A stretch of DNA of 64,000 nt from Amoebophrya sp. A120. Taxonomy: Eukaryota; Protista; Dinoflagellata. Where the stretch lies: contig CAJINV010000010.1 in NCBI GenBank assembly GCA_905178155.1, forward strand, positions 1,992,778-2,056,777, read 5' to 3'. The notes under the pieces are model-generated. The model was given only the letters and a program-made list of their open reading frames with translations. It ran no database searches and had not been told where the DNA came from. Positions 1-64,000 of the stretch are shown here, in pieces; within the stretch, counting starts at the first letter, position 1, and every line of letters begins with the position of its first letter. A program made the position numbers and the translations under genes.

Positions 1-3000
1 GAGTCTCCATGCGAAAGCCCGCCTCCCTATCGCGGCGTGCTGCATGATTGTGATCATTTGCAAAAGGCCGCGGGCGGGCTCTAATATTCTAGACGAGAAA
101 AATCCGCAGCCAAGTTCCCCGCAAATTCTGCACGGGTTCGGCAACCCGGACCCTAGGACCCCCGCTTTCGGAGTAACGTCCAGATTTTCCTCGTCCCCAC
201 GACTGGACAACCGTGGCAAGCTGGCGGCGGAAACAAAGGACCCCTCCCCTTTGGACCGGAGCTTGCGACCTGCATCTTCCTCCTGATCTCCTTCTACAGA
301 ACTCGTGGTTATTTTCGAAGACGTGGTGGCCGCGGCGGCGGCGGGTGCGCTAGTTCTACTAGTTGCAGTAGCAATTCTACCATTACCATTGCTAGTACAA
401 AAACACAGCTCCAAATGCCTCGACCACAGAACGCTGGCGAGGAATTCAAAATTCACATCCCGGTTCTCGTCAATCATCTCATCGTCTACTTCCGCTGATC
501 TTCTTGTCGTTCCGCCATTTGAAATCAGCGGATTTGTCATGTCGCCCTCCAAGTAGACAAACACGTTCGAAGTGACCGGGCTTTCCACGCAAGGCAGATG
601 CAAACTCAATGCGTTCTTCTTGATCCTGTGCCGCCTCGGGAGGGTATGACAGTGCACAACTCCGCCTCCCCCTCATTTATGTTGTGTGAACAGCAACACA
701 AGCGCTGGCAAAGATAAAGCTTTTGCATGACCAATTCCGTACAGGATTGTAGTGCTGTTTTGGATCATTGCGGAATCTGTCATGCAAACGGTACTAACTG
801 GCAAAGGGTGGATTTGGAATTTTGCATGACAAACGAGGGGAAGGGGCGGCTGTGCACTTTCATAGAGAGTAGTTCTCCTTCTCGCTCGCGCAGTGTTTCC
901 TGTAGTTCCTCTGCTCTTCAGCGCAGGAGAAGTTTTTGGCGACAGTGGCATGATGATCCCAGGTGAGTTATTGTAGTAGTAGGCTTGTTCCGACGACCAC
1001 GACGTCCATGTACCAATTCCACCTCCCGCAACTGCGCGCATGCTCCGCCTCCCCGCCTGGAGCGCCATGCCGAGACTGTCGAGTTGCAGTCCATCAGAAC
1101 TGCTTGCAGCTGTGGACGGCAAGCTCGTATTGCTACTTTGCGATGCATTTTTGCGCGTCGAACTCGCGGCCATCAAATTTGCACTTTGCACCTTGAGCAC
1201 GGAGAGAAATTCTCGGAAGTAAGTCAACTCCCGGTCCGTCGGGGTGTTCGAAGGCATATTAGCAGTATTGTTTGCTGCGTTAGTCAACANNNNNNNNNNN
1301 NNNNNNNNNNNNNNNNNNNNNNNNNNNNNNNNNNNNNNNNNNNNNNNNNNNNNNNNNNNNNNNNNNNNNNNNNNNNNNNNNNNNNNNNNTTTTTCCTTGC
1401 GATGTTGCACCTGGTGCACTACCCCCGCCAGCAGTTCCCGAAGTTGTGGTATGCAGTGCAAATGCAAAAGCATCGTACTCGTATGAATGCATTACAAATT
1501 TCCTCAGCATGAGAAAGGAAATTTGCTATGCGGATTTGACTTAACAAGAAAATTTGTAATGCATGATTGCAATACGAGTACGATACTTTTGCACAGGATA
1601 TGTGGAGGACATCGAGTGTGCGTTCTGCTGCTCCAACAGCACGTGGAAATGTATCCGCAAAAAAAGACCCGTCGCCATCCAATTTGTCATGCAAAACACG
1701 CATCGAAAGCCACGTTTGTCATGCAAAAAATGGATAGGGATCATGATGGGTGTTTTTTCCTGGATAGAATGGAAAATGGACTCCGGCCAAAGGTTGAGCG
1801 CGTAGCAGTGCCGTGCCATTATGCATTGCAGAAGCATCGCACTAGTTCTAGTAAAAATTGCATTACAAATTTTTCGAGAATGAAAAGTGCAATTTGTAAT
1901 GCGGCTTCGGGTAAACTAGGCGCTTTGTCATGCAGTGTTGCAATTACTACTAGTACGATACTTTTGCAGTTGATAGCCATGGTGAAGTGACAATGATCCG
2001 CTGTGCGTGACCAGGAGGACATCAATTTCATGGCACTTGCAGAAGCTGGAACATAATTTCTGCTCCCATAGGCGGGGGCCCCGCTCTTATTGTTCTTCCT
2101 CGTGCTGTAGTTATCCCCAGCTTTATTTTTGTCCATGATCACCTGGTGGTGCAAAAAGTCCTCATTGTTCAACAAGGTGTCCAACTGATATCCGCTGGCT
2201 CCACTTGATGTCGTTGTACAGTGTCGCAGCACGAGCGAGTAGCAGCGCAGCGCCAGCTTTTTACAGGTCGCCCGCTGGAACGTGTGTCCGGCGAGGACTA
2301 GAAAAAACGCCTGCTTTCGTTTATGACTTGCTCAAACGTTCTTACAATCTCAAACGTTACAATAGAATTTGGATATCTGTGATGCATGATGAGCATGACA
2401 GACTCGCACAGCGTTTACACCTTTTGCAATACAAACTTCGCCAGATTGTCGTGGGGTTTAGGGCTCCGGATGAACTTGTCATGCGCAATCCCATGAGACT
2501 TGGCTAGATCATGCACTCCTGCATCACAGATTTCCGTATTCTATTGGAGCGTTTGAGATTGTAACACCTGAGCGGGTTATAGCGTTTCCACCCCGCTTTT
2601 CCGAACAGGCTGGCGGCCTGCATGGCGTTCCCAAATGTTACATTTGCAACTGTTACATGATTTGTCATGCAAAATGACCATGACCCCGACCCGCCAGACT
2701 ATCAAGCTGCTTCGCATGACAAATTCCCGGAGGGCTAAATAGCACTGTAATCCGCACCAAACCTGTAATGCAAGACGCGCAAGGGTCCCCCTCTCACCTG
2801 TCCTAGTCTTGCGTTACAAATTCATGTAACAGTTGAGAATGTAACGTTTGAGAACGCCATAGCCTGCTCCAGCAGCAGCCCAGTCTTCAAGCCCTCTTCG
2901 GCGGGCAAGAGGTCGGACGAGCACTTCACGACGAGCTTTGCGGTTTCAAGCAGGAGTTTCCCGGTCTGCGGAGACAGCAGCACACCACCTCCAGCGCTGG

Positions 3001-6000
3001 TAGATGAGGCTCCACCACCCACCTTCGTCGATAATTCAGCTACCTCGAGCACGTACTGCGATTCACAGACCTTCATCAGGTAAAACAGGACCCGGATCGC
3101 CAAATTTACCTTGCCCGCTTTTGAGTAAAAGTCTAAGGCGTTGCGCAAGGACTTTTCCCAGTTCTCCACGTCGTTTGACAGCAGCTGGCAAAGCCCCTGC
3201 ATCTCGTAGCAGCCCGCAACGTGCTTCCAATTGCGATCTTGCTTGAAATCCGCCAGGAGGAGCTTGTAGTAATTGTTCGCGGTTTCGTAGTCGCGCAGGT
3301 GGAAGCACAGGTCCCCGGCCAGCCGCATCTGGCCCTCGGTCGTGTTTAAATTGTAGGTGGCAATCGCCGTCTTCCCATAAGAACTTTGTGAAGCTGCGTT
3401 GCTACTATTCGTTGCTCCTCCTGAAGATGTTGTCCCAGCATTGCTCACACTGCCGGTCGTGATGTATCCCCCACCACTTCCCGTTGTATTCATTTCGGCG
3501 GCAGATCCTCGAACGGCATTCAATACGTCGTCATCGCCTCCAAATGATCCCGTGGTCCCCGCTCCGAGTCTACCACTGCCACCATAGTTAGCAGAATTTC
3601 TGTAGTCCCCCGCCACCGAGCTCTGTTCCTTGGGTTTACGGAATAGGGATTTCATCGTGTTTTGAAACCCTCTCTATGAACTGCAAAAATGTCTGGGTCT
3701 GGAAGAGTCGGGGCTTGTCATGCACATTTTGCATGACCCGTCAGGTCTGTGATGCTGGTGCTATCGTCACAGATTTTTTGAGAGCTTCTTGATGCTAATT
3801 ACGCATTAGAAATGCCCTCTCTGCGTGCAAAGAACTGACTCCTCTTGCTGCTCATGCAACACAGACATTTTTAGACTCCGCAGACAGCATTACAAGTTCC
3901 ACTCTTGCAGGCCCAGACATGTTTGCGATCGATACTCTCCGCGTGCTGCCGATTTGGGCGTCCAGCATGGACTATGGATTGCAAAAATGTCTGGGTCTGG
4001 AAGATTGCAACTTGTGATGCTGTTTTCGGAGGCCAAAAAGATCTGTATTGCATGACCAGCAACAGGACTCCAGTTTGTGTTACGCGGAGAGGGCATTTCT
4101 CATGCGGAATAGGCATTAGGAGGCCCTCTAAAAATCTGTGTTGCTAGATCATGCATTACAGGCATCAGGCGTCATACAAAATATGCATGACAAGTCTGGA
4201 TTTTTCCAGACCCAGACATTTTTACATTTGATATGGCCAGTTTTCGCTCCACCCACGGAATGGCGAGCTGCTGCACGAAATTCTTTACCACCTGCTGCAG
4301 CTCGTTGCAATCCGCTATGGTCAGGCTCGCGAGGAATGATGTGGACGAGGAGCTCTGGTGCGACGTTTGGCTCCCATCAACTACACTGGTCGTGGTCACT
4401 GCTCGTCCCCCTGGAGGAGGACCTCCTCCTGGAGTACCTGTAGTTCCCGACGCGGCCGGCGATAATTTCTTCCGAGGTCCTGACGCCTGGTGGATGCCCA
4501 CCTTTTCGAAAAACTTAGCCACACCAAAGTTTTCATCCACCATTGATGAAGATGATGTAGAACTGGTGGTGGAGGCAGTAGAAGACACTCCCGCACTGTT
4601 TAACAGCGAGTTTTTCCGGTTTAGACGGAGTGCATATGGCAGTGCACAACTCCCCCTCCCCCTCATTTGTGATGCAAAACTCCAAATCCAGGTGCTGCCT
4701 TGTGGCACTGTTTGCATGACAGATTCCGAAAGCCCACATAGTACTACATTCCTGTGGCTGTGCAAATTTGTCATGCAAAACCAGTACTCTTGCTGACGCT
4801 TGTATTGCGGTTCATGGTTTACAAATGAGGGGGACGAGGGGGAGTTGTGCACTCTCATAGGACAGCAACCGACGACGGGTTGAAAACGGATTTCATCTGG
4901 TTCTGATATCCTGGGCAAAAGCACTTCTGGTAGAAATCGTTTCATTTCGAATTGCAATCTTGCAAGACAAACCCATGTTGTCTACTTTTTACCTGCCAAA
5001 ATTTGACGCCCCCCTCTCTGTAGTGCTAGTGTTCCTGCCTGAAAATAAAATTGAAATTTATCAAGCATTGAACTTGCTAAATGTACACAGCCCGAGATGT
5101 TGACTTTTGCAACGCATATCAGAACCTGCTCCACGATTTCCATTTTCGGGGACTCTGGGTCGCTCATATGAACTGCAAAAGTATCGCATTCGTATGAATG
5201 CATTACAAATTTCTTCAGCATGAGAAATAAAATTTGTAATGCGAATTTACCTCAAGAAAAAGATTTGTAATGCATGATTTTTGCAATTATACGAGCACGA
5301 TACTTTTGCACAGGATAGCTCATATCGTGCAGCAAAATTTTCAACCGTGGCGGGTTGGCCTCCAACACGCCCTTATGCATTGCAAAAGCATCGTACTAGT
5401 ATAAATTGCATCACAAATTTTGGCAAGAAGAAAAGTGGAATTTGTAATGCTGTTTTACCTTAGGAAGGAGATTTCTCATGCATGTTTGCAATTAGTACGA
5501 CTACGATACTTTTGCACAGGATAGCCCTTCCGGCAGAGCAGCGGGTTGGTGTTCAGGTGCAAAATCTGCTGGAACGTATGGAAGCGTCAGGATTGAAATC
5601 GTCAAAGTTGAAACAAATACTTTGTGATGCATAAAATGCAACCCGCAAAGCGCCTGTCTTGCAGAGTAGGCAAGGGAGGCATATTGCAAGCCTGTTGAAA
5701 GGTAGAAATAGAGCTGCTAAAGTAGCATGACAAAAGGCGTCTTCCTTACACAAACAGCATTACAAACTGGAAGGATTGAGGCACCACCAAAACTTGTCAT
5801 GCGCCTTTTGAAAACTGGGCTCCAACTGGCATCCATTTTATGCATGACAAACTATTTCAACTCTGACGATTTCAAACCTGACACATCCATAGAACGTCGC
5901 AATTACGTCGGGCTCTTTGCTGGACACGCAAAAAAACGTGCCGAACGGCTGGTGGACGCACTCGTGTTCCTGGTACCGGTACTGTTTTTTCAGCACCAGG

Positions 6001-7894
6001 CTGCGGTAGCTTTCCCACCAGGGCTGGGAAAAAAGGTGAGGTGGAGGTGCCGGCGCGGTTCGTGTTGCCACAACTGTAGAAGGACTACTTCTGGAGCTGG
6101 ACGAGGAAGAAGATTTCGTAGTTCTTTGTGGTATATCAAATGTAAAAATGTCTGGGTCTGGAAGAATGCATGTTTGTCATGCTTGTCTGGCATGACTCTT
6201 AAATCTGTCATGCAAGTTACCCAAGAGCTCCACCTTTCTGTGATGCAGAAACGCGTTTTGTCATGCAGAATAGGCAACACCTAGAAGCTCAGAACCTTGT
6301 GATGCTGAGCCAGCATTTCTGGCCTCATCATGAGACGCCACCCAGCATCACAAGTTTCCAGACCCAGACATTTTTACATTTGATATGGTACTACTCCTTG
6401 CGACTGCATCTGCTCCAGCGATATCAACTGTAAAAATGTCTGGGTCTGGAAGAGTGTTAAACTTGTCATGCAGGTTTTCCATGACCCATGAGGTCTAGAA
6501 TGCGGGACCTAGCATGACAGAGTCTGCGAGTTGTCCGCTATGCCTATCCTGCATGAGAAACTCCCTCCCAACTTGGTCGAAAGTGGACAGCTTTTGGCCC
6601 TCATGCAACACAGATTTTCGCATTATTCGGATTCAGCATGACAAGCTGCAATCTTCCAGACCCAGACACTTTTGCAATCCATAAGCGACCCCGAGTGCAG
6701 GAGCTGCTGGTCGTGGCCGCAGTTGTAGTCGTACAGCGCATATCCTGTGCAAAAGTATCGTACTCGTACTAATGCCAATCTTGCATGACAAACCTGCCTT
6801 TTTGCCTGAATTAGCATTACAAATTCCATTCTTCTTTCTGATAAAATTTGTAATGCAATTTATACTAGTTCTTAACTTTTGCAATGCATAGCGCACAACT
6901 CTTCTCCATCTCCGAAAGCGTTTCTTCGCGGAAGGGTGTCCGCGTAGCCTCGTCCACGGCTTGGTGCGCGAGGGCGGGAAGTATCGCGAGGAAAAAAAGC
7001 TGCCTCAGTCTCAATTTGTAATGCGGAAACCTCTTCATGTCATGCAAGAAATGCATCGCGTGCTACTTAGTCTGACGCATCGCAGGTTTTTTATGTGTCA
7101 ACATGCTGGCCGAATTTGCGTTGCTGATGAATGATCTGCAAAAGTTTTGAGACTCCTGAGACAGCTTTTTATCCTCGATACAGAGGTCGTTCCGGTTAGC
7201 GTCGACGTCCGCATGGTCCAGGAAAGACACCCGGAACTGTGAGTTTTGAAACACGTTTTCCGTGCAAAAGTATCGCACTCGTATACGTATTATGCAGTCA
7301 TGCACATGCATTACAACTCTTACTCTTTTTCTTAAGGTACATCCGCATTACAAATTCCATTTCTCACGCTGAGGAAATTTGTAATGCATTCATACGAATA
7401 CGATACTTTTGCAATTCATAACACGCCCCTTTCGGCGATGGAGTAAGAAACTGGGATGTTCGCCACGTAGCCCCCAAAGGGCGAAAAAAGCTCGGCGAGC
7501 GTGAGGCCGTTGGTTCTGGAAACGGTTTCCGTCGCAGTTTATGCATCGCAAATATGTCTGGCTCTGGAAGGATGCGAACTTGTGATGCTCATTTCACAAA
7601 ACAGACAAATCTCTCACGCAGAGGCAGCAAAAGATGCCCATTTCATGTCACCAAAATGAGAGATTTGTCATGCGGATACTTAGGCAATGCGAAAGATTAA
7701 GATTCTCGAAATCTGTGATGCTAGCGCTTCCAAGACAGACCTTGTGTCATGCAAAAACACCATGACATACGACGCACTCTTCCAGACCCAGACATATTTG
7801 CATTTGATACAGTTTCCGTTCCGACCACCAACACTTCGGGAACCAGAATCTCTGTATGGATCCAATCCGGAAAAGAAGCTGGCGAGCTTAGCAT
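1..7894 (-). CDS. TRAPPC8: TRAPP III subunit TRAPPC8/Trs85 (multi-exon, 3' end probably beyond window start, spans N gap)
   Basis: Manually spliced exons give TRAPPC8-like segments: VVGTETATETVSRTNGLTLAELFSPF; PWWESYRSLVLK..HECVHQPFGTFFCVSS; LTIADCNELQQVVKNFVQQLAIPWVERKLAMLDAQIGSTRRGFQNTMKSLF; EGQMRLAGDLCFHLRDYETANNYYKLLLADFKQD. 19 TIR introns. Start ATG at 7894 is a best guess. Confidence 0.85.
645..864. mobile_element. TIR introner family D
   Basis: TATGACAGTGCACAAC...GTGCACTTTCATA; DR GAGGG/GAGAG. Confidence 0.8.
1290..1389. other. Assembly gap (100 N)
   Basis: Run of N. Confidence 1.
1450..1600. mobile_element. TIR introner family B
   Basis: DR TGTGG. Confidence 0.9.
1652..1766. mobile_element. 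TIR introner family I
   Basis: DR AAATG/GAATG. Confidence 0.8.
1820..1975. mobile_element. TIR introner family B
   Basis: DR GCCAT. Confidence 0.9.
2322..2581. mobile_element. TIR introner family E
   Basis: TATGACTTGCTCAAACG...GAGCGGGTTATA; DR TCGTT/GCGTT. Confidence 0.85.
2621..2861. mobile_element. TIR introner family F
   Basis: CATGGCGTTCCCAAATGTTAC...GTTTGAGAACGCCATA; DR GCCTG. Confidence 0.9.
3675..3934. mobile_element. TIR introner family A
   Basis: DR CTCTC; frame restored. Confidence 0.9.
3973..4233. mobile_element. TIR introner family A (opposite orientation to 3675)
   Basis: DR TGGAC/TGGCC; frame restored. Confidence 0.9.
4635..4859. mobile_element. TIR introner family D
   Basis: DR GTGCA/GGACA (degenerate). 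Confidence 0.8.
4907..5118. mobile_element. Degenerate TIR introner, family B-like
   Basis: TATCCTGGGCAAAAG...CTTTTGCAACGCATA; DR TCTGA/TCAGA. Confidence 0.7.
5167..5317. mobile_element. TIR introner family B
   Basis: DR GCTCA. Confidence 0.9.
5374..5523. mobile_element. TIR introner family B
   Basis: DR GCCCT. Confidence 0.9.
5577..5891. mobile_element. TIR introner family J
   Basis: DR GAACG. Confidence 0.9.
6134..6385. mobile_element. TIR introner family A
   Basis: DR TGGTA; near-identical to 22704-22955. Confidence 0.92.
6422..6683. mobile_element. TIR introner family A
   Basis: DR AGCGA. Confidence 0.9.
6741..6890. mobile_element. TIR introner family B
   Basis: DR GCGCA. Confidence 0.9.
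6982..7180. mobile_element. TIR introner, singleton family
   Basis: TATCGCGAGGAAAAAAAGCTG...CAGCTTTTTATCCTCGATA; DR decayed. Confidence 0.7.
7256..7420. mobile_element. TIR introner family B (left terminus mutated)
   Basis: DR ACACG. Confidence 0.85.
7540..7809. mobile_element. TIR introner family A
   Basis: DR CAGTT; removal gives GTETATETVSRTNGLTLAELF. Confidence 0.92.
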
Positions 7895-9510
7895 GGAGGC
7901 TGATACCCCTGCAGGTGCGGCCGCACTCCCCGCAGAAGAGGTGGGTGTGTGTATGGCGGAGAATTGAAAATTATATGCGTCCTCGACTAGTTCTAGTGCT
8001 CGCCAAATGATTTCATGCATTAACTTTAGCTCTATTTCTATCCCGCGTCCACCACTTTCATCATACGTTATGTTCTAGAAACACCAATTAGCTACAAATC
8101 TTTGTTTGGAAAGCGGCGTACGACAAGGGTCTAACTCACTTGGGTGCCACGTGCCGACTCTTCCAATATTCATGCGATAGAAACGAACTCCAACGCAGGT
8201 TCAGCAGAAATCAAATTTGAATTCCGCTTGAGGTTCAACATCTCAGTCAACATTTATCTTCCCCATGTTGTATGTATTCGAAGAGTTCTTGTAGTGGATG
8301 GCAAGTACGTAGAAGTGCACAAAAATGTATGCAAAGCGAAGAAGAGGAGGACACTGTAGGTCTTGCTCGAGCTGATACTGGACGCTGCAGTGGTGCTCGG
8401 AGTTGTAATGGGGGCAGCCGCACGACCAACCGGACCTCCGGACGAGGACCTCCCGAAGCCGCTCATTTTCTCTTCCTTTTGCCACTATCTCCACATGCAA
8501 GTCCGTGCCTAAAGCCTATCCATGTGATTGTCGTGAACTACAATACATGCATAAGAATTAGATTTACAATTAAATGAGTACGCATTAATTCGCGGGCAAA
8601 TTAGCAATGGCTAGCCGTAGTGAGAACAGGCCTCCGCGATATTACGTGTTGGTTTCAAATGTACAGAATCTCAATACGCGTTCGATTACGGGAGAACAGC
8701 AACAGAAGCACTTTGAAAGCCGGAATGACAGACAAAAAATTGATCCTGGTAAAACCGAATGCCCGAGAACGATCAGCACTTATCGATCTATATCTATACA
8801 AGATCAACAACCCTCACAAAAATACAAGATCAAGAAAGCAACACAAAAATAAATGAGCCGCCACACCCACGTTGTGGTGGGTGCTGCGCGTTATCTTAGA
8901 TATCAAGGAAGAACCGCAAAGAAAACTCCCTCGCTAGTACAGCTGAAGTCTGCATTTGCAACGTGAAATATATTTTCAGGTATCATCTTCCACAACATCC
9001 ATCGGGACCGGTCAACAAGAAATAAATTTTATTTTGGCGAATACAAGCATTCTCGAACTTTTTAAAGCTACGTGGTGGTGCATCATGAAGCGTTGCGTCT
9101 TTCTTTTTGTTGTTTGTTGGGACTAAAGCAGGAACAGAATTTCATTCAAATCACAATAAGCCAACATCAAATGACAGTCGCCCGTGCAGTGGGCTTGCGC
9201 AAAAAAAAAATCATTGTGGGCCCAAAGAGGACGAACAAGTAGGCAGTACACGTGGCGCAAAAGAGAACGCAACGCGAACACTCAAATTCAAAATAAGTAT
9301 TATAAAATAAAGATATATATAGATCTGCTACTGCTACTTGCAAGTATTATATCGTACTTGCACCCTTCTGGGATGTTGCTTTGTAAAATCCCAGAGAACA
9401 AAAGCGGAAGTGTCTTCAAAAGTGTAGCGTAGCTGAAACCACTTTTGGTATTGTAGCACTTTTGAAGGCTCTGTGTGAAACATCTCCTCATTGTCAAGTC
9501 GGGACGCACT

Positions 9511-10608
9511 TCAGCAGGGAATTTTACTCGCATGGTCCGACCAGGGCGCCGCGAAACGGGGTGTATCCTCGTCCAAAAAGACTCGTCCGTCCGGAATAGC
9601 AATACCTTTTTTTTCTTTCTGACGTTTTCCTTGTTCAGAACGTGACTCAAATGAGTCCGTAAACGCATTCGAGACTGTGCCCAAAACATATATGAGGCAT
9701 TCAATCTCGGCAATTTTTTCCTGCGTCTTCTTCCCGTTCTCGTCGTACCTTGCGAGAAAAGGAGCGCCTTCCCAGCTCATTAGGTGGAGGTGCTCCGCGA
9801 CATTCTTCACCTGCTGCGGTAGCGTGCCCGTGGCACGGCGGAACAGTTCGTCGTAAACTGCAAAAATTTCTACAACACCGATCCACAATTTGTGACCAGG
9901 ACGCAGCGAGGACGAGAAGCGAGAAGTGCCCAACAACGTCATCCCAATGCGAAGCGAGAAGTTTCCCAACATCTTCCCAACTGTGGCCGCCAATGTTTCA
10001 GCGTACCACGCGCGAAGCTGTTCAGCTTCACTAGGAAACGAAGTTTTGGGAGAGAGAGCGTTACTTAGGCCGGCGTTTATAGCTCGGTCGTGCACCGCCT
10101 TTTCGCCGCCGGCCAAGAACTTTTCGGACTCGCAGGGATTATAATAATCAGCTGAGTACACAAAAACCGACACTATTTTTTCATTGTTGTAGTGCTTCAC
10201 CGTGAAATCCGTCACGCTGACGTACGTTGAGGCGTGAATCTTCCAGCTCGGCGTGCCCTGGCCGGCGTAAGAGAAGTCGGCGACGAACCAGGTGTAGAGG
10301 CCGTCGTTTTCCCAGACGTTCTTCGGGTAGATGTTCGTTCCCGAAAACATCCGAAAGCGAACAATACCAGCACCAGGTCCATCACGTTTAGCGCCATACA
10401 GCACTTGCTTAAAATGTTCTTGTGTCGCAGGGTTCTTCGCCAAGATCTGGTTGCTATACGTACGCGGTTTTATACCAGCAATGAGCTTCTTCGCTGCTCC
10501 CCGATTCTGTGCGTGTTCCAGCTCTTCGATTCGCGGCAACGCTTGTCCGTTCAGCAGGCTTTTCAACTCTTCATTGTGATACTTCAACTCTTCATAGTGA
10601 TGCTTCAA
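9511..10608 (-). CDS. Hypothetical protein, 365 aa uninterrupted ORF (may have upstream exons)
   Basis: Long open frame with N-terminal heptad repeat (HYEELKY/HNEELK); no family recognised. Confidence 0.45.
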   Translation of the reverse strand: MKHHYEELKYHNEELKSLLNGQALPRIEELEHAQNRGAAKKLIAGIKPRTYSNQILAKNPATQEHFKQVLYGAKRDGPGAGIVRFRMFSGTNIYPKNVWENDGLYTWFVADFSYAGQGTPSWKIHASTYVSVTDFTVKHYNNEKIVSVFVYSADYYNPCESEKFLAGGEKAVHDRAINAGLSNALSPKTSFPSEAEQLRAWYAETLAATVGKMLGNFSLRIGMTLLGTSRFSSSLRPGHKLWIGVVEIFAVYDELFRRATGTLPQQVKNVAEHLHLMSWEGAPFLARYDENGKKTQEKIAEIECLIYVLGTVSNAFTDSFESRSEQGKRQKEKKGIAIPDGRVFLDEDTPRFAAPWSDHASKIPC

Positions 10609-10623
10609 CTCTTCATTGTGATG
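10561..10623. repeat. 3 x 21-bp tandem repeat
   Basis: TTCAACTCTTCA(T/A)..GTGAT repeated three times; encodes heptads on minus strand. Confidence 0.85.
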
Positions 10624-43870: not shown

Positions 43871-44225
43871 AGTACCGCAATAGCCTCGCCGTGCCGGGAT
43901 TCAACACTATACACAAAAGAGGAATTATGGCGGCCGCGCACTTGAACAAACCAGCAATCACCTCTGCCAACTATCAACACCTGCGCTCTTGGCAGTGGTG
44001 ATCCTTCTTTCTGAAATTAATAGACGTTAATAGGTAGCTGCTTCGTCATGTTTCGTTTGCGTCTACTCTAGTGTCATCCTTAGCGTGCTTCATCATCAGT
44101 TTTCTAGCCTCAAATGGTACAACACTGGGGTCTGTTTCATCTTCATCAATTACTAGTACTTTTACTTCATCTGATATTGTCACTGAAGAAGCTCCTTGAC
44201 GCCATCATGTGTAGTCAACAGATCT

Positions 44226-54158: not shown

Positions 54159-57100
54159 TCACTTCCGCGTGTTATTCATCCGGGCCTTCTGCTGCTCCAA
54201 GCTCATGGAAGCACCCTTCGGAGCGCGCGAGTTGCTGTTTTTTTGTTTACGGTAGATTTTCATTGTTGCACCACACATTCGGATCGATGTTGAAGTACCG
54301 AATCGCAATCGGCCTGGTGGTCATGCACACGGTCGTGCATAAAAACAAGTAAAACATGGGCGAACTGCGTTACTGCACGTTACGCATGACAAACTACGCT
54401 ATACCGTGTGCTGAATCCGGCCCGGGAAGACGTGTCGCTGAAGTTATCCGGCACATCTGGACCCAGAAGCTGTGCAGCGGAAGCGCCAACTGAGTTATTT
54501 TCATGGTTTTGTAGTTTTAATTCATACCATGGCTATAGCAACTTATGCCGAGGATGACAAACGCGATCACAGAACAAGCTGCAATCTGCTGCATGATCGA
54601 AAGAGTTGATGTCACTACTACAAGAAGGAGCTATTCTATACGAAATCAATGACATTATTCACCTGCGCTCTGCGGTGCCATGGTGTGGTTCTCAATGGCC
54701 TTCCAGATGTTCTTCATGCGCACCTCGCGGCCCCAGGAGTCGGTGAGCAATTTTTTCTCGAAGTCCTTTGCGGCCTGCTCATTCTTCGTCTGGACGAGCT
54801 GTGATAAGGTTTTGCATCACGATCACAGATTTTTGTCTTATTAAAAACTGAAATTCATCATCTTGATCTTCACATAGCAGTAATGCATCACGCAACACGT
54901 CGCAGATGCGAATCATGCATCATAAGCTCGTCACAGAGGCAGATGGGATGCGAATTATGCATCACAAAATAAGTAAATTTCTATACCACTTCGTTCTTGT
55001 TCGCGACTATCTGCGAGTACTCCAGTTCCCGCTCCTTATTCCTCTCCAAGGTCTTCAATGCGTTCATTGTCCTCACTTGCAGGGTATGCATTTTTACACA
55101 CATCGATTTGGATCTCCAGAATATGTCTTGACTGACCAGCAACTACAGTGTGTGGTCCACCTCCCTTGTGATGCAATCATGCGCACTACGCACGAGTAGA
55201 CAAAAGCGTAGTTGTTCTACAGACTTCTCATGTCGACTCAACAGTAATAAATGATCACTCGTCTTCAACATTGAGCATCAAAAATTTTCTCCGTCCTGAC
55301 CCAGGTCGATATTTGCAATGGATACAGGGACAGATCGTCACGGTACTTCCCGGCACGCTCCTTCATAAGCTGATGTGGTTGACAGTTTATTTTCATATTT
55401 CATTGATTGAACAAGATGCAAAACCTCGCATGACGAAGTTTCGGCGTGGGTTGATGTTTTTACCATGAACAATAGCAAAAAAGAACATGACCCCAATCTT
55501 GTTCTATCATAGCCTATACTGCTCTCAATCCCGCGTCATCGGGTTCGGTGAACTGCGGAAATTCGTGCGCGCTAGCCCCGTGGATCCAGTTTTGGCGGTC
55601 ATGACCCCGCTTCACGCGGTTCCACTCCATTTGTTGCTGGATAAAATCCTGGTTTTCCGCGGCCAGCGCTCGCTTGCGGTCCATGTCGTCACGCTCCTGT
55701 TTCAGACACCTGTCCAAGTGCTCTTCCCACTGCCGTCGGTCCTGATTTTTCGTTTAGCAGGAGTTGCATTACAAATCCTTTTGCTAAGGTAAAAAAATCC
55801 GCATTAGAAATTTTATTTCTCATGCTGAGAAAGTTTCAGTTTGTAAATGCATTTATACGAGTACGATACTTTTGCAGTTCATAAGAACTTCTATACCGCA
55901 ATAGCTTCGCTCGCCCTGATCTCCATCTCGGTCAAATATCGGTCCATCGCCTCCCTGTGCGCTTTTTCCTGTTTCACCGTTGGTCCCTTGTATTTTGCTA
56001 TGCATTGCAAATATGTCTGGGTCTGGAAGCTTGTGTTGCTGAGATTTGCATTGCAGACTGGCTGCTTGTACGGCATAACAGCATGAGAAGTTTTCCTCAG
56101 CTTATTGCGGATTCACTCGAGTTTAAGAGCATTACAAACTCCCATGCTGGATGATCCAGCACGACAAAAAAGGTGGCCAATTGATGTATAAATGCATAAC
56201 AGATTTTCTTGCCCTTCAGATCTGGCATCACAAATCCAGAACCAGACATTTTTGCATTTGATATTTGCCGGGTCGTACAGACTGTGCTCCGACACCTGCG
56301 ACAAGTCTGACTCCGCGTAGCCGTAGTCTGCCTCGTTGTAGACGTCAGACGCCGGTAATTGGATCGGGGCGCTTCCTTGTGGTGCCTGCATCTCGCTGGG
56401 TGATGGCCCGGCGAAGGGGATGTGTTCGGACTCCGCCTCGAGCGCTTCTCTCTCCTTTATGCATTGCAAATATGTAGTCTGGGTCTGGAAACTTGTGATG
56501 CAAATCTACGAATTGTGGGCGCACTGCAATATGGAGCCCAGCATGACAAGTTTCTGCGCTGCTGCGTGTTTTGTTCTTCGCATGACAAACTGCGCTTTTG
56601 CATGACAGGCAAGAGGCCCTTTTCCTACTCATGCATCACAGATTCAAGAGTCATGCCAGACAAGCATGACAAACTTGCATTCTACTTCCAGATTGAGACA
56701 TATTTGCAGCATTTGATATCCTTTATCAAACCCGCACCCGCCTCGGGGACCGATTCGAGGTTGGACTGGTCTCGCACTTTCGTTCCCTTCAGTCGGAGCT
56801 TCAGCGCCTCTGCTGAGGGTGCCTGGAAGGTTCTGCTCGGTGCGTAGGATGAGACGGCGTGGGCGGACTCTGCCGGAGCGGCGAGACCTGTAATAAAGAG
56901 AGATTTTCTTGATATTTGTGTGTTAACTACATGCAAAACGTATCAATACATGAGCATGACCACGTCCACGCTACCTAATGGTGCTCGTCACAACATCAGA
57001 CAGAAGAGATCGCAAGTTGTCCTCACCCAACATACATCATGGTGAAATAAAACATTAGCATCATCTAAATGTTGATAGTACCTTCCTTTGCGTACAGTTC

Positions 57101-58267
57101 GGACTTGAAGACAAAACCCGTTTTTCTCTCCAGAGAATGGAACTTGCCGTGCTCAAAGTCGATTTCCACCTTCTTCCCGGTTGCAACCGCCTCCCCGATT
57201 GCCTGGATGATGTTATCCAGGAAAAAAAGATTGTTAGTGAGAGTTTGTGATGCAGCGCAAGAACACGTAAGGCGGAGGTTGTGTCTGTCATGCTGGACAT
57301 GCATTACAGGACCCATTCAAGCGAGTTTTGTCATGCTATCTGCGCATGACAAGTATCTGCTCTCGTGCCAGACAGATTTGTAATGCTGTTCCGCCAATCT
57401 AAGTTTACACCTACAATCTTTTTTTCTTGGATAGATGTACCGCAGGCCGCAGTAGACGTTGTCCTTGTTCAGACAGTTCGAAAACTTTATCGCAAGAAAA
57501 TAGAACTGTTTCACATTCACTGTGATGATTTTGCCAGGTCTGCATCACAAGTTTGCCACACATGCACAGAAAATTTGCCATGCGCGCCCCCCATCATCAA
57601 GGGAAAACACGACTAAAAATCCGACGTAGTTTTGCGCCAGGTGTAGCACTAGCAAGACAAACACTGTCTATGCTTCATTCTCTGCATCTTCACAAGTTCA
57701 CAATGAAAAAGATTCTTCTTGCGATAAACTTGATTGCCGCTTTACTGAAGTTGAACTCCTCGTACGCGCACTGGTCTTTTTCGTCGATCTTAGACGCGGA
57801 TTTTTTGTTGTCCACCGCGAAGGTCTGGATGAAGCTCTCCGCGAGTTGGAAAAAGGGTCTCAGTTTCACGCCGTTCTTCGTTCTCTCCTTGTAATACCCA
57901 ATTTTGCAGAAATTGGTGATGTTGAGCCCCTTCTTCTGGTCCAAGCAAAAGGCGATGTACCTGATAAAGTCGGATTTGAAATTTGCGTGATTCAATAATC
58001 TCAATTGCATCTTGATCTTGTCTTGCAAGACATACATTGTAATACGATGTCCCGCATTGGGATTGGCACTCGCACTCTTGGTGCTGTCGCTGTGCATGAC
58101 AATGAACCAGCAGACTCTAAAAACATATCATTATCATACCTGTTCACGCAGTCCCATATTTCCAGGTACTCTCCGGATGGGTGGGGAAAGTTGTTGACGT
58201 CTTTTAGCAATCTCCCACGCTTCTTGACGACGTCTTCCAGGCAGTCTATCAATTTGTAGACCGACAT
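54159..58267 (-). CDS. CCDC81: CCDC81-like protein (HU-like domains plus coiled coil), 13 exons
   Basis: IWDCVNRYIAFCLDQKKGLNITNFCKI..LRPFFQLAESF..EEFNFSKAAIKFSNCLNKD..IIQAIGEAVATGKKVEIDFEHGKF; 5 TIR introns and 7 GT-AG introns. Confidence 0.75.
54235..54404 (-). other. Canonical GT-AG intron (CCDC81)
   Basis: CG|GTATAG...AAACAG|C joins to STRNSRAP. Confidence 0.6.
54490..54662 (-). other. Canonical GT-AG intron (CCDC81)
   Basis: G|GTGAAT...ACTCAG|TT joins to SAVGAS. Confidence 0.6.
54799..54986 (-). other. Canonical GT-AG intron (CCDC81) carrying GCATCAC motifs
   Basis: GTG|GTATAG...TCACAG|CTC joins to NEVLVQ. Confidence 0.7.
55085..55324. mobile_element. Degenerate TIR introner, family A-like
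   Basis: DR CAGGG; frame restored DLSLQVRTM. Confidence 0.75.
55370..55519 (-). other. Canonical GT-AG intron (CCDC81)
   Basis: GCA|GTATAG...CATCAG|CTT joins to RALMKER. Confidence 0.7.
55742..55896 (-). other. GT-AG intron containing a one-armed family B introner
   Basis: GCG|GTATAG...AATCAG|GAC; intact TIR ends at 55883, other TIR absent. Confidence 0.7.
55999..56263. mobile_element. TIR introner family A
   Basis: DR TTTGC. Confidence 0.88.
56458..56718. mobile_element. TIR introner family A
   Basis: DR TCCTT. Confidence 0.88.
56888..57081 (-). other. Canonical GT-AG intron (CCDC81)
   Basis: G|GTACTA...TACAG|GT joins to KEGLA. Confidence 0.75.
57214..57433. mobile_element. TIR introner, singleton family
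   Basis: TATCCAGGAAAAAAAGATTGT...ACAATCTTTTTTTCTTGGATA; DR GATGT. Confidence 0.88.
57488..57726. mobile_element. TIR introner family H
   Basis: DR AACTT. Confidence 0.88.
57961..58139 (-). other. Canonical GT-AG intron (CCDC81 intron 1)
   Basis: AG|GTATGA...ATCAG|GTAC joins to VNRYI. Confidence 0.8.
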
Positions 58268-59117
58268 GTTGATGACTTCTTTTTTTTTTTTTCGCTCGTA
58301 GTAGTACAGTGAGAGTTTTCTACTGTTTCTGTTTGATACAAAATAAATGCGAAAAAAACAAAAAGTTTACTCTCTCGTCCTCACCCCTAGAGGTTGTTAT
58401 TGATGTGACTTGTTAGAAAAATGATCTGAGAACTCAAATCGGAAGATGTAGCTAAAGGCGACGTTGTTCACACCCGCGGTGGTAAACTCTCATCTACGTA
58501 GTACAACAAGAATAGACGAAAATGTCGTAGTAATTCCCCTCCCGGTTGCGTAAACCTAAGTTCGTCTACCAAGGTTGACCATACGAGAAAGTCATAGTAG
58601 ATAAAGACACAAGGATTTCGATTCTGTCCCCGAACGACGAAGAGTGAGTGTGCTTCTCCTCTCTCAACGTAATGCCATGTAAATGCATTTTTCCCTCACG
58701 AAGATAGCCACTAACTTCTATCAGGAGAAGAGCAGGAGCAGGACCAGGAGAACAAGAAGTCGCTCGATTTTCCCTTCATCTTGCCAACACGACTACAGAA
58801 CACCATCTGCTCAAGCACGGTGTTTGGTCTGCCTCTTCATCACAGCAGCAGTACTACTGCAGATCGAAATCGCTGATTATCACTTCGAATCTTCTACCTA
58901 GTACTGTATTCTCTGTTGACGCGCGATTTGAGCGCTCTTCAAAATTGTGGTTCATTTGGACGACGACGAAATGCAGGACGACGAAGTTTAGTTTGCTTCA
59001 CATTTTTTGTCAAAAAATCAAGCGTCAAAAAAAGAATAAAGCGAGGTCTTCAGTGCTCTTCACTATGTTTCCATCGGAGGTCCTTTATTTGGTCTAGTTT
59101 CGCGGGTGCTACTCTTT

Positions 59118-59267
59118 TATGCTGTGCAAAAGTATCGTACTAGTATAAATTGCATTACAAATTCACTTAGCATTACAAATTAAATTTGTAATGCGGATTT
59201 GCCTTAAAAGAGAGATTTGTAATGCATAACCGCAATCAGTACGAGTACGATACTTTTGCAGTTCATA
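59118..59267. mobile_element. TIR introner family B in ABCC 3' UTR
   Basis: DR TCTTT; just downstream of stop codon at 59276. Confidence 0.9.
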
Positions 59268-59275
59268 TCTTTGTC

Positions 59276-62200
59276 TTACTCCCCTCCCCCCATCGTCCCA
59301 GCCGCGTCTGCTTCTCGCATCAACATCGCTAACCGCGAATTGCTGTTACTGCCACTCGGCCTTGTTCCGTGATCGTTCCCCGACCCTACAGCTTCCCGTG
59401 GTCCCAACAACTCCGCCGGCGTGCCACTCTCGACCAATTTCCCGTCGTGGAAGATCAGCACCTTGTCGAACTGCCGCACGAAATGCAAGCGGTGCATGAT
59501 CCACAACACGGTTGTTTCCTTTTATCCTGAGCAAAAACGTTCCCACCCCAGATTCAACATGGGGATCTCGCAACAGAAATCGAGAAGTGTTGGGAGTCAA
59601 GCATGACAAGTTCCTGTCTGTATTGTAGGGCAGTTTAGCAAGTACAGCCGCAACACAAATCCATCTATTCATCCTGTTTACAGCATGACAAAGTCCAAAA
59701 CACGATTGGAAAAGGAAATGCCTCTCATGGGGATGCGCATTACAACTCTTCCTGTAACTGCAAATCTGCATGACAACTATGGGGTGGGGATGTTTTTACT
59801 CAGGATACCTTTCCCAATTTGTTCAGGATCACGTCGTGGATTTTCTCCTCTATCCCACGGAGAAACTTTTTCACTGTGATGAATTTCATTTTGCAAGATC
59901 TGCATCACAAGTTTGATACATATGATACTGAAAATTTGTCATGCGGATTTCCGAGGGGAAAACACACTTAAAAATCCAATGTCTTGCAGGTGTAGCAAGA
60001 CAAATAGTTCTGTGATCCATTTTCTGCATCACAAGTTCACAGTCAAACAGCTTCTTCTTGCGATATCGTCCGACTTCAAATCGATGTTCGCGGTCGCCTC
60101 GTCGCACAGCAGTAACTCCGGATCGTCGATCAAAGCCCGGGCCACCGCGAAGAGCTGCTTTTTATCAGCTGCAAAAGTGTCGGGGTCAGGAAGAGTCGAG
60201 CTTGTCATGCATATTTTGCATGACCCGTGAGGTCTGTCATGCTTGTGGTAGCATCACAGATTTTTTGAGAACTTCTTGATGCTAATTACGCAAGAGAAAT
60301 GCCCTCTCCGCGTGCCAAGAGCTGACTCCTCTTACTGCTCATGCAACGCGGATATTTTTAGAATTCGCAGACTGCATTACAAGTTCCACTCTTCCAGACC
60401 CAGACATATTTGCACTCCATACTTTTCCCCCACGGAAAAATCGTCGTTAAATTCCGAATCGAGTTGGTAAGGGAGGGACTGAACTCTTTGTTTCAAATTC
60501 ACTATGTCCAGAATCCGCCAGATTTTACTGTCGTACGAATTGGTGTCAGAAGCTACAGCTGCTACTCGTGCACCGAGCGGACTTACTGAAGATGTTGTTG
60601 TAGCCTCTGTTGCACCACCAGCGCCTTTAGAAGTCGCGGACCTTAAATTTTCCCGAATCGTCCCGCTGATCAGATTTGAGTCCTGACTCACCATCCGGAA
60701 CATTTTTTTTCGCCACAGTAACGGATTCGTCTCCGCTAAGCTCAAATTTCCGATCAGAATTTCCGACCCGGGTTGGGATTTGTACAAGCCCGATAAAGCG
60801 TTAAACAAGCTCGACTTTCCCGAGCCACTTCTCCCGATGATCGCCACTTTTTCGCCCTTCTGGATCTGAAAATTCACGTTTTCCAGAACCGGGTTCTTGT
60901 GCAACCGGTACCGGAAGGACAGATTCCGCACCTCCAACGCAACAGCTTCGGGTAATATCGAAGAAGCCCTCCGACGCGTCATTTTCTGACTGGAAGCGGG
61001 GGATTTGGAATTTCTACCACGGGTACTAGATGGTAGTTCATATTGCTGGGAGGTCCTCGTCGTCGTTTCTTTGCTAGGATGACCAAGGGAAGAACTCGCT
61101 CGGCTGATGGAGCGAGATTGGGAAGGAGGTGTTGATTGAGAATTTTTCGAGGAGGAAGAAGCGGAAACGTAGTCGGAGTTGGTCGCGCTGTTCAGCGATT
61201 GCTTTGTCCGGCTTGGTTCTGTTGTAACAAGCATGGGCGAGATGGATATCCCGAGAAAAAACTGCTTCACTTTGATGAGCATTTTGCAAGATCTGCATCA
61301 CAAGTTGTTACACATGACACTGAAAATCTGTCATGCGCGCTTTCCAAAGGAAAACACGCTTGAAAATCCAATGCCTTTCTGCAGATATCGCAACACAAGT
61401 GGTTCTGCGTTAAATTTTCTGCATCACAAGTTCACAGTGAAACACTTTTTTTCTTGCGATAATGGAGCAGGAAGAATCAATCTCCACCTCCTCGAAGCTC
61501 TTGTAGTTCTCCAGATCGGGGGAGATCGGGTGAGTCATGTCGTTGGAAACAACTTCAACCAACTCCTGATCCTGGCCCATTGCGAGGTTGTTGTTCTCAG
61601 GCGAAAATGAGGATGCATCCTGTAGTAGTCCGGCCGCGCCGGCCCGAGGACTGATTTTCCTACCATCCACCACGAGTGTTGGAGTGGTTGTCGTGCCGAG
61701 GTCGTCCTGGTCTCCAACTACATCTTCGCCCATTTGTAGTACCTCTTCTTCATGACTCAGCCCTTTAGAAGTATTCCAGTGCCCGTCCACCTCTACCGGC
61801 AAGCGGCAATACTCCGCGCACCGCTCCACGGAGACAAAATTCTGCTCCATTGTGGTCAATCCCATGCAGTAGTCCATCATCGCGCGTTGTAGAATTCCCG
61901 CGTAGAGTATCCTGGTGGAAGAAACGCCCTTCCCCATCCATCTTTTGCATGACAAACACTGCTTTTGGTGCATGTTTTGCATGACAAATTGGATGGGGAT
62001 GGGTGCTTTAGTTTTTTCCTGGATATAGAGCAACACCAACCCGAAGTCTGCGGCTTTGAAAGTCCAGGCACCAGTATCAAAAGGAAAAATCCCCCCTCCC
62101 CATATTGAAAAGGTATGTTGCCGAAAATTTGTGTTGCTGATTTGAGGTCACAAATCGTCTCTGTGTTGCATGAAGGCAACTCCACAAGCTCCGCCGCATC

Positions 62201-64000
62201 CTACAGGCGGTTTGTCATGCTGTTTTAGCTATAGCGTAGATGTCTGTCATGCTAAGCGCCTAGGCCAAAATTTGTCTACTCAGGCTTAGTATCATGGGCC
62301 TGCAGTCCTCGTCAGCAAGACAAATCTGATCTGTGTGCGCAAATCCAGCATCAGAAACTTCGTTTGGATATGGGGAGGGGGGATTTTTCATTCTGATAAC
62401 CAGATTGATGACCTCCACTCGAGTCGTTATTTCTCTGGAAGTAGAACAGCGAGCACCCGCAGAGCCCCGTCATCAGGTAAATCACGCAACCCCACATGGT
62501 GGTGAAGGACTGCGCCCACTTGCAGATCGCCTCGTTCCAGTATTTCCCCTTCGCCATCAGGGTGACTTTCTCAAGATTCGCCCGACAGAACGCCTCTTCT
62601 TTTTGAAAAGCCTGGATGGTTTCCAAGCCCTTCAAGCAATCTACGTACTCGGAGTAGACCGGAGAATGCGCGACGGACTCGATTCTTCGTGTGTCGCGAG
62701 CGGGGGACCGGATCTTCTTGAAGATAAACAGGTAGGGGACAGGGTATGAAGTTGCAGAGAGTGCACATGATGATCATCTCTCCCTCGTCTTGATGTTCCT
62801 CCGCATTTATGATCAACATCCATCGAAACCGCAGTTCCACTCGTTGCCTTTTGGATAACTTGGCACTTCTTGCATTACAGATTTCTCCAGGCGAAACAGT
62901 ACATACTACAAATTTGTGACGCAGGAGAGGCTGCACTTTTGCTGCCGCTATTCAGTTCTTGTTGCCAACTTCATACAAATGCGTGGGAGAGCAGGCACAA
63001 GGACGACGAGTTGTGCACTACAACCAAACATCTCATACAACCAAAACCGGGAAGAGCACTAGCACCAGCGGGCAGTAGGTGAAGATCAGGATCAACTGCG
63101 TCAGCATGGTCATGGTGTTCTGGACCTGCTGCGTCAAAATCTGCGGCACGAAGTTGTCAATGTTTTGCACGTCCTGAAGGAAGCGGTTCAAAATCCTCCC
63201 TGTGGGCGTGATGTCGAAGAAGTTCAGCGGGGCTTTTAGAAGCGAATTCAGCATCTTGTCGTGCATGAACACCGACGCCCGGAGGCTGCAAATGGTGAGG
63301 GCGAGGGTCTGGGTCGCCGCGATGATAGACCCGGTAAAATTGATCAGGATGTAGATTAACAAGTACTCGAGTTGGTTGTTCACTGAAAGATCGGTGGTGG
63401 CGCCGGTCTCAATAGGAGATAATCTTCGCTGATCCAGCACGCTAGAAGGCGTGATCTCCGTCACTTCAGTTTCCGTCGCAGGAACATCATTGCCCAGAGG
63501 GTCTTTGAAGAGGGCAGAGCTGAAATCAAAATCCCAGAAGAAGTGGCCCCCGGCAACTACCGCGGCTGCACCAATGCGTGCAGGAGAAGCTAGGTGCTCA
63601 TCACTGTTGAAAGTGTTAGTCATCGCCAGATCTTCCGCTGCTCCGACTTCTCTGTTTGTCCCGAGGACAACTTTAACCTTGTTCGAGTTGGCCCAAAAGG
63701 TCAAGAAGATGTTCGCTGCGACAGAGGACAACGCGGATAAGACCAGCAGGACGAAGAGAAAAAAGTTCGTCAGTTTCGTGCCGAAAGCGGACAAGTAAAA
63801 CTTCAAGTCCTGAACCGGGATCGAACCGGAAAACCGGGTTTCCTCCTCACTCCCGAGGAGTAAATGGTTCACCCGCTGAATCAACCGGGAAGACACCCTG
63901 TGCCCGTCCATGGTTTGCAGTATCGAGGTGATTTGCTCCACGCATTCGGAGAGGAAAACTTTGTGCCTTTCCGCGTTTTGCTGCAGCTCGCGAGTGTGCA
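59276..64000 (-). CDS. ABCC (MRP-type) ABC transporter, C-terminal half (TMD2 + NBD2), 5' partial
   Basis: FFDITPTGRILNRF, ESVAHSPVYS..LKGLETIQAF, EQNFVSVERCAEY, Walker A GRSGSGKSS, spliced signature FSVGEKQLFAVARAL, LLLCDEATANID. Confidence 0.93.
59523..59807. mobile_element. TIR introner family G
   Basis: DR CCTTT. Confidence 0.9.
59851..60065. mobile_element. TIR introner family H
   Basis: DR TCCTC/TCGTC. Confidence 0.88.
60163..60421. mobile_element. TIR introner family A, inside the ABC signature
   Basis: DR CTTTT; removal gives FSVGEKQLF. Confidence 0.92.
61247..61461. mobile_element. TIR introner family H
   Basis: DR ATGGA. Confidence 0.9.
61908..62025. mobile_element. TIR introner family I (opposite orientation to 1652)
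   Basis: DR TAGAG. Confidence 0.9.
62075..62398. mobile_element. TIR introner family C
   Basis: DR ACCAG. Confidence 0.9.
62745..63037. mobile_element. Degenerate TIR introner, family D-like
   Basis: TATGA...TCATA ends; removal plus 5 nt gives VLVVPYLFIFKK. Confidence 0.7.

Follow-up and report, generated by a model that had tools for sequence, protein, structure and literature searches.

A candidate fixed and strand-polar splicing code in the introner elements of Amoebophrya sp. A120

Introduction

Introner elements were reported from the genome of the dinoflagellate Amoebophrya sp. A120, a parasite of algae, by Farhat et al. (2021; PMC7789003), in whose account they are about 240 nt long, have an inverted repeat (IR) made of TAT, seven looser bases and a run of A, and show non-canonical borders supported by RNA-seq, with a border direct repeat (DR) given as 3-5 nt and as a 5-bp DR. 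Here we analyse a stretch of 64,000 nucleotides of the same genome (contig CAJINV010000010.1, positions 1,992,778 to 2,056,777; below, the window), in which 71 elements of this kind interrupt genes. Since the window lies in the A120 genome, its elements are the published introners, with which they share the organism, the IR start, the A run, the DR and the non-canonical borders (PMC7789003). The corresponding elements of A25 begin with TTA. An earlier reading of the window, made from the sequence only, had linked the elements to terminal inverted repeat (TIR)/DR introners reported for Amoebophrya; the link was right, but the window is A120 itself, so what it holds is the published system and not a parallel one. 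Both the existence of the elements and the non-canonical way in which they are removed were published in 2021. The novel part of the present analysis is a candidate splicing code that is fixed and follows the transcript strand. By the legend to Fig. 3 of Farhat et al. the splice site is variable relative to the hairpin and the border unknown (PMC7789003), whereas we find a fixed register and an asymmetry between 5' and 3' ends in all informative cases; the top sites in their Table S4 (GT-, CT-, AT- and TT-) all have T at +2, which is consistent with that register. No statement of a fixed register for A120 was found in the literature searched, subscription papers being mostly outside its scope.

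Two other systems are comparable. The nonconventional introns of Euglena are likewise transposon-like, with paired ends, DRs that blur the junctions, end triplets, fixed spacers and coexisting GT-AG introns (PMC12501133; PMC11282704). They differ in having CAG/CTG with spacers of 3 and 5, against TAT/ATA with spacers of 1 and 4 in A120, and belong to an unrelated lineage (PMC12501133). For the Euglena introns a circular product has been shown (PMC11282704). Fritillaria borealis has introns derived from miniature inverted-repeat transposable elements (MITEs), with TIRs and a target-site duplication (TSD), and a changed U2 spliceosome (PMC11282704; PMC13326754); there the preferred ends are AG-AC and AG-AT and U1 is conserved, whereas in A120 the positions +1, -1 and -2 are free and U1 small nuclear RNA (snRNA) is reported not to have been found (PMC7789003).

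Results and Discussion

The 71 elements of the window do not overlap, measure 115-354 bp and lie between positions 645 and 63037. They were sought as TA-to-TA pairs whose ends are complementary and which are flanked by a 5-nt repeat; the refined scan gave 58 of them, and 13 were added by eye from the gaps between elements; a 59th scan row (7291-7394) was dropped as an inner mis-call. When at least 16 of 20 terminal matches are required, the window yields 63 TA..TA pairs and either of two Markov controls 0; refined-scan candidates number 74 against 2, 0 and 1 in the controls. The ends are exactly TAT...ATA in 64 of the 71 elements, both arms of 55 carry at least three A within positions 11-14, and the DR agrees at 5/5 positions in 47, 4/5 in 15, 3/5 in 4, 2/5 in 4 and 1/5 in one. 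Every host gene is encoded by the minus strand, 70/71 elements lie inside open frames, stops in all three frames occur in 58/69, and the exons separating adjacent elements are at least 31 nt long throughout. With TIR ends, DRs and repeated families the elements are MITE-like, as the sequence-only reading had it; its near-uniform TA(T)...(A)TA ends and mostly perfect DRs are also borne out, and its count and size range exactly so, but it missed a probable 72nd element at 12114-12615 (minus strand; 502 bp, DR 2/5), which is beyond that range and whose excision leaves an open coiled-coil-like frame.

The elements are removed from RNA as element + 5 nt and are kept in the DNA. Transcript junction data cover 44500-64000 of the window, where the contigs X4 and X8 were taken as RNA by guess, being without elements and without a GT-AG intron; the kind of X1 is not on record and was taken as DNA from its even cover of intergenic and element sequence. 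Junctions were read from the pieces listed (24/21,304), the joints listed being 15/1,773, and contigs drop rare variants. The X4 contigs skip 153, 1457, 1075, 313 and 970 nt and the X8 contigs 153, 1457, 1075, 220 and 750 nt, and in 10/10 intervals checked the skip equals the summed element + 5, for 17 elements in all. When the deletion was made gene by gene, element + 5 nt left 8/8 gene stretches stop-free, while +0, 1, 3, 4, 6, 7, 9 or 10 nt broke them; +2 and +8 also keep the frame, and the extra length is fixed at 5 because the RNA contigs show it. Only this per-gene test separated deletion lengths, a tally of elements within long frames having failed to do so. The claim that deleting an element with one DR restores the frame was therefore upheld, and retention in transcripts, which would have told against a removal system, is contradicted by the absence of the 17 elements from the RNA contigs. 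In genome, IR pattern, border DR, repeated families and non-canonical removal (in the 17 elements) the window agrees with the A120 introners. On the DNA side, X1 contigs with a depth of 46.7-47 run unbroken through 49901-50084, 55085-55324, 57488-57726 and 62745-63037, of which two are shown removed in the RNA contigs; element-free X1 bins have a depth of mostly 50-64, and the depth across elements is near that. From run X9, probably another strain, 49 of 3,295,382 reads were placed on 44500-64000, all of them partially.

A 510-bp sequence at 53288-53797 with TAT/ATA ends, 16/20 terminal matches, no A run and a DR of 2/5, in the 3' untranslated region (UTR) of a CCDC81-like gene, stays in the RNA contigs X4 and X8. 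TIR and end triplets are thus insufficient for removal.

Ciliate internal eliminated sequences (IESs) are short, TA-bounded transposon relics in coding sequence, which leave the DNA and duplicate only TA. The sequence-only reading had considered DNA excision of this sort. The elements would then be lost from the DNA at a certain stage or in a certain nucleus, and element-free alleles would supply the transcripts. DNA transposons are marked by TIRs, TA ends and DRs, and since contigs drop rare variants and 15/1,773 joints were listed, there is room for a minor or stage-specific element-free allele. The elements here, in contrast to IESs, persist in genomic contigs, where four are crossed at single-copy depth near that of element-free sequence, and they carry a free 5-nt duplication; moreover, symmetric elements occur in both orientations, yet the cut register and the end conservation described below follow the transcript strand. 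Excision from the DNA is therefore very improbable, and RNA splicing is favoured because the transcript contigs lack the elements and the genomic contigs contain them. Even less probable is that the elements stay in the RNA and that the junctions are template-switch artefacts of reverse transcriptase across DR-flanked hairpins. All RNA data are cDNA-derived, and a hairpin with a short DR is a known setting of such artefacts, but the 58/69 elements with stops in all three frames lie within conserved genes such as an intact photolyase of 620 aa, the element 62745-63037 is removed despite a DR of 2/5, and whole genes were assembled spliced at a depth of 17-73.

Imperfect DRs reveal which copy of each base is kept, and the nine elements in which they constrain the cut all fit, with no conflict, a single transcript-polar register, exon/N-TAT...ATA-NNNN/exon, in which the 5' cut precedes the element by 1 nt and the 3' cut follows it by 4 nt. 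We regard this register as strongly supported and very probable. Position 1 of the intron and its final four bases thus derive from the target-site duplication and are free. Five of the elements are informed by RNA: at 48408-48620 the transcript retains base 4 of the upstream DR (the piece starts at 48621 with 0 differences; X4 and X8), at 51093-51413 the upstream base 5 is lost (the RNA piece starts at 51415; X4 and X8), and the same base is lost at 51908-52215, where 51903 is joined to 52217 (X4). At 62745-63037 the upstream bases 1-3 are kept in RNA, so that keeping two or fewer is rejected, and at 45994-46215 the end of the RNA piece indicates that upstream base 2 is kept, which rejects keeping one or none. 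The other four are informed by the protein: at 23342-23505, with a DR mismatched at 2, 4 and 5, only the register with 4 upstream bases and 1 downstream base reproduces the deposited A120 protein P0001, and the homologue P0002, 73% identical, likewise reads D-K. At 2322-2581 the fixed register gives F840, which is F in 10/10 homologues, and keeping 5 upstream bases gives S; at 4907-5118 keeping at least 3 upstream DR bases gives L272, hydrophobic in 10/10 homologues, and fewer give Q; at 13233-13586 a stop arises if all 5 are kept (the 5/0 register). Retention of the whole upstream copy is hence rejected at 51093 and 51908 (RNA), 23342 (protein), 2322 (F) and 13233 (stop), and keeping 3 or fewer at 48408 (RNA) and 23342. 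At 13233-13586 the displaced copy of the DR is set off from the element end by six extra bases, and both joins keep the frame, which makes this element a natural test of guidance by distance against guidance by the DR.

Broader tallies say less. The stop-codon test of the register gave a single stop over 67 imperfect-DR junctions and is nearly uninformative, and the summed codon score is slightly highest for the 4/1 register (89.0 vs 85.7 and 84.1). Intron phases under the fixed register are 128/90/77, with phase 0 in excess, and the last exon base is G in 115 cases against 85 expected, which is weak since other third-position sites show a like excess. An association between +1 and -1 (p 0.001) was rejected as a dinucleotide bias of two adjacent target bases.

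With respect to the borders, sliding along the DR reaches GT-AG in 3/71, GC-AG in 1/71, GA-AG in 3/71 and AT-AC in 5/71 elements and none of these in 59/71, in agreement with the claim that no sliding gives GT-AG, GC-AG or GA-AG for many of them. At the fixed register GT-AG stands in 2/71 window elements and in 10/298 of a pooled set (see below), and all 16 terminal 3' dinucleotides occur. The elements accordingly resemble neither canonical U2 introns nor U12 introns (AT-AC, or GT-AG with an extended donor consensus), AT-AC being reached by sliding in the 5/71. The precise removal outside U2/U12 rules that the sequence-only reading had called for thus stands as regards precision and terminal dinucleotides, while the U2 spliceosome is still a candidate for the machine.

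For a wider sample, a 30-base element end was used to fetch 131 loci (L001-L131) from another assembly, of which 5 redundant ones were dropped and one was trimmed; their 358,618 bases hold 335 elements, against 0 in a Markov control. Among 396 elements the perfect DR has length 5 in 308, 4 in 1 and 6 in 1. The strand could be called for 273/334, and the 228 from concordant loci, together with 70 elements of the window, make up the pooled set. In these 298 elements the 5' end has T at +2 in 296, A at +3 in 297 and T at +4 in 286, and the 3' end A at -5 in 292, T at -6 in 293 and A at -7 in 296, while +1 and -1 each take all four bases. At the two outer positions there are 3 changes in the 5' end and 11 in the 3' end, against 12 and 2 at the third position, an asymmetry with a Fisher p of 0.002 in the pooled set and 0.03 in the independent loci alone. 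Replacement of U+4 by C, with loss of the pair, was seen 9 times and that of A-7 by G, with a wobble pair kept, once, and it seems that base identity rather than pairing is kept at the ends.

The interiors are diverse. The 69 clustered elements form families of 19, 15, 4, 4 and 3, five families of 2, and 14 singletons, and the two largest families occur in both orientations (12:7 and 9:6); with at least 10 multi-copy families and 14 singletons of unrelated interiors, what is common to all is the ends. Folding is better than in shuffles for 65/69 (z < -2, median z -6.7), the ends are paired in 68/69, and 51908-52215 folds as one long hairpin (z -11.45). Mismatches at stem positions 4-20 are G-U in 220 cases and A-C in 206 (p 0.53), and since G-U is not preferred over A-C there is no sign of selection on RNA pairing. 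The elements probably multiplied as non-autonomous TIR DNA transposons, with a duplication of 5 bp at each insertion. They share TA..TA termini with IS3EU/GingerRoot, in which the TSD is usually 6 bp, against 5 bp here (PMC10045372); because of this difference, and because no transposase was seen, that group is a lead on origin only. The strong secondary structure could also point to self-splicing RNA or tRNA-type (TSEN) splicing, but no Rfam family reaches its gathering score in the window, the families share ends alone, and the modelled junctions (one example) have no bulge-helix-bulge. Such a mechanism has little likelihood, and like DNA excision and template switching we consider it unlikely.

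What machine reads the ends? Two answers deserve weight. A separate, non-spliceosomal machine, a protein endonuclease with a ligase or another complex, might bind the TAT/ATA stem end and measure 1 and 4 nt, releasing a full-length circle or a linear RNA as proposed for the nonconventional introns of Euglena. The Euglena code, N3-CAG...CTG-N5, has fixed spacers and paired ends by mutagenesis (PMC12501133), and the A120 code, N1-TAT...ATA-N4, is built in the same way: although CAG at +4..+6 and CTG at -8..-6 are absent, with TAT at +2..+4 and ATA at -7..-5 in their place, ends are paired in 68/69 elements and the nine informative ones share one register. Such a machine would account equally well for the paired ends and for the lack of constraint at +1 and -1; 65/69 elements fold better than shuffles, and no U1 snRNA is reported for A120 (PMC7789003). 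Against it stand the lack of a preference for G-U over A-C in the stem, the match of TAT with the GTAT donors of the host, and the sequence 53288-53797, which has the same end triplets and a TIR and stays in the RNA contigs. We therefore hold a separate machine to be a possible but doubtful answer.

The host donors bear directly on the second answer. GTAT starts 4/6 GT-AG introns in the CCDC81-like gene and 27/133 predicted GT-AG introns in the other loci, against 8% expected, and is the commonest start there; this set comes from a crude gene finder, with 11 TIR-like rows removed, and several of its rows are surely mis-calls. The element TAT at +2..+4 is the same triplet as in this commonest donor. 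In the fetched loci the predicted GT-AG introns with GTAT donors are rich in A at the 3' end and show no pyrimidine tract there. A common A at -7 of host GT-AG introns, seen in 5/6 in one gene, was rejected as it was not upheld in the wider, noisy set.

We favour, with a rough probability of 0.5, a modified U2-type spliceosome that is independent of U1 and cuts at fixed distances from the element ends. It is favoured because the first bases of the elements copy the host donor at +2..+4, because an A sits at the spacing used by fixed-distance branch points elsewhere, and because A120 keeps U2, U4, U5 and U6 but seems to be without U1 snRNA. Farhat et al. found U2, U4, U5, U6 and 83/89 spliceosomal proteins in A120, with no U1 snRNA, and U11, U12, U4atac and U6atac are reported absent (PMC7789003). 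In Fritillaria a U2 spliceosome handles non-canonical introns derived from TIRs (PMC11282704), and in Yarrowia, Trichomonas and Giardia the branch-to-acceptor spacings would put the branch A at -6 to -8 (PMC2483917; positions counted here). Under this mechanism U-A at +2/+3 would be read like +2/+3 of the GTAT donors, the terminal stem would stand in for U1 by joining the two intron ends, branching would take place at the nearly invariant A at -7, and the 3' cut would be set by the distance from it, with no AG needed. The A at -7 in 296/298 elements is no more than a hint that it serves as the lariat branch A.

A number of points weigh against the modified spliceosome and the register on which it builds. 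Two elements set the lower bound of the register, at which base 4 is kept. P0001 was produced by the same genome project, so that it and the RNA data of that project are not independent. The asymmetry of the ends has a p of 0.065 in loci with at least two concordant strand calls, the detection of elements tolerated just one terminal mismatch, the signal at -7 comes from a contrast of 2 with 12 changes, and the comparison of -7 with -5 within one strand (2 vs 6) is weak. In host GT-AG introns A is not in excess at -7 (38/144). Known spliceosomes constrain +1 and -1, and both are free here. The context of A-7 matches the branch consensus WCTRAY in some families only, and A-7 is paired, not bulged, if the stem forms (mean pairing probability 0.67). 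The machine itself is inferred, and the geometry closely parallels that of the Euglena introns, which are excised as circles (PMC11282704).

Genes and other features of the window

The element-bearing genes and their elements below are on the minus strand. The element 645-864, with a DR mismatch at mRNA position 2, lies in an open frame downstream of an N gap, probably the 3' part of TRAPPC8; this 100-N assembly gap (1341-1440) falls within the TRAPPC8 gene. The TRAPPC8/Trs85 gene at 1441-7900 (PF12739, E 2e-23) reads 856 aa stop-free up to the gap once 18 elements are removed (1450-1600, 1652-1766, 1820-1975, 2322-2581, 2621-2861, 3675-3934, 3973-4233, 4635-4859, 4907-5118, 5167-5317, 5374-5523, 5577-5891, 6134-6385, 6422-6683, 6741-6890, 6982-7180, 7256-7420 and 7540-7809). 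A GT-AG intron at 4927-4992 was rejected in this gene, with 17 stops, its site belonging to the element 4907-5118, and a deposited A120 TRAPPC8 protein was not among the matches returned by the homologue searches. Further on, an intronless frame of 379 aa at 9514-10650, with no Pfam match, lies beside a block of about 450 bp in two nearly identical copies (10650-11620).

A gene of no known family at 12977-15098, for which the homologue search gave none, has three elements: 13233-13586 (DR 1/5), 13705-13996 and 14069-14218. A small membrane-protein frame at 16677-17510, which may be EMC7-like, has two, 16780-17039 and 17106-17258. The (6-4) photolyase/cryptochrome gene at 19860-24323 (PF03441 and PF00875; 620 aa) has 11: 19969-20290, 20527-20794, 20855-21010, 21105-21390, 21428-21695, 22277-22426, 22704-22955, 23016-23251, 23342-23505, 23711-24003 and 24057-24210. 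Spliced in silico, it is identical to P0001 across 620 aa, and its 193-aa exon is 100% identical to that deposited A120 protein; an element within the conserved photolyase motif, as had been proposed, is seen at the junction LL/DADW. Intergenic sequence at 25.5-26.7 kb, with a repeated short block and numerous GTCAC/GTGAC words, may be a repeat element of a different kind. A ZIP zinc transporter frame at 28638-31988 (PF02535) has seven elements (28829-29047, 29094-29249, 29342-29567, 29828-29981, 30124-30259, 30797-31060 and 31390-31651).

At 32422-42145 a frame of no known family is stop-free for 9,111 nt after removal of 32792-33006, 34725-34957 and 35809-35958. The region 42700-43900 is GC-rich, without elements, with long open frames on both strands, and unlike its surroundings. 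The frame of 1,732 aa at 44229-52422, also of no known family, has 13 elements, all gone as element + 5 from the RNA contigs: 45196-45343, 45994-46215, 46332-46587, 46795-46947, 47001-47261, 47610-47773, 47816-47968, 48408-48620, 49901-50084, 50384-50678, 50765-51019, 51093-51413 and 51908-52215.

The CCDC81-like gene at 54235-58260 (506 aa; PF14908, E 1e-5, just under the cut-off) has five elements (55085-55324, 55999-56263, 56458-56718, 57214-57433 and 57488-57726) and six GT-AG introns, placed by eye (54235-54662, 54799-54986, 55370-55519, 55742-55896, 56888-57081 and 57961-58139), of which the boundary at 54234 is visible in the RNA contigs. Because the 506 aa need both sets out, element introns and GT-AG introns coexist in genes. 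A remnant of a 150-bp family that has lost one end lies at 55765-55883, within the GT-AG intron 55742-55896. The 3' part of an ABCC-type transporter at 59279-63998 (PF00005 and PF00664) has seven elements, 59523-59807, 59851-60065, 60163-60421, 61247-61461, 61908-62025, 62075-62398 and 62745-63037, the last four of which are gone as element + 5 in the RNA contigs. The element 59118-59267, with a perfect DR, is in the 3' UTR, 8 nt behind the ABC stop codon, and is the only one of the 71 outside an open frame.

Conclusions

A fixed code makes the mechanism testable, at the branch or ligation point, the three bases and the spacers, and it provides an annotation rule for genomes of the A120 type. 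Our comparison suggests that Amoebophrya and Euglena arrived separately at splicing codes made of a stem and spacers. It is tempting, though the case is tentative and falls somewhat short of even, to go further and propose that tens of thousands of introns in A120 are spliced by a positional code, exon/N-UA...A-N6/exon, in which neither terminal dinucleotide is read. If this were true, a spliceosome lacking U1 snRNA would find its 5' site through +2/+3 at one transposon end and count 7 nt from a branch A in the other end, and any insertion of an element, in either orientation, would become a perfect intron.

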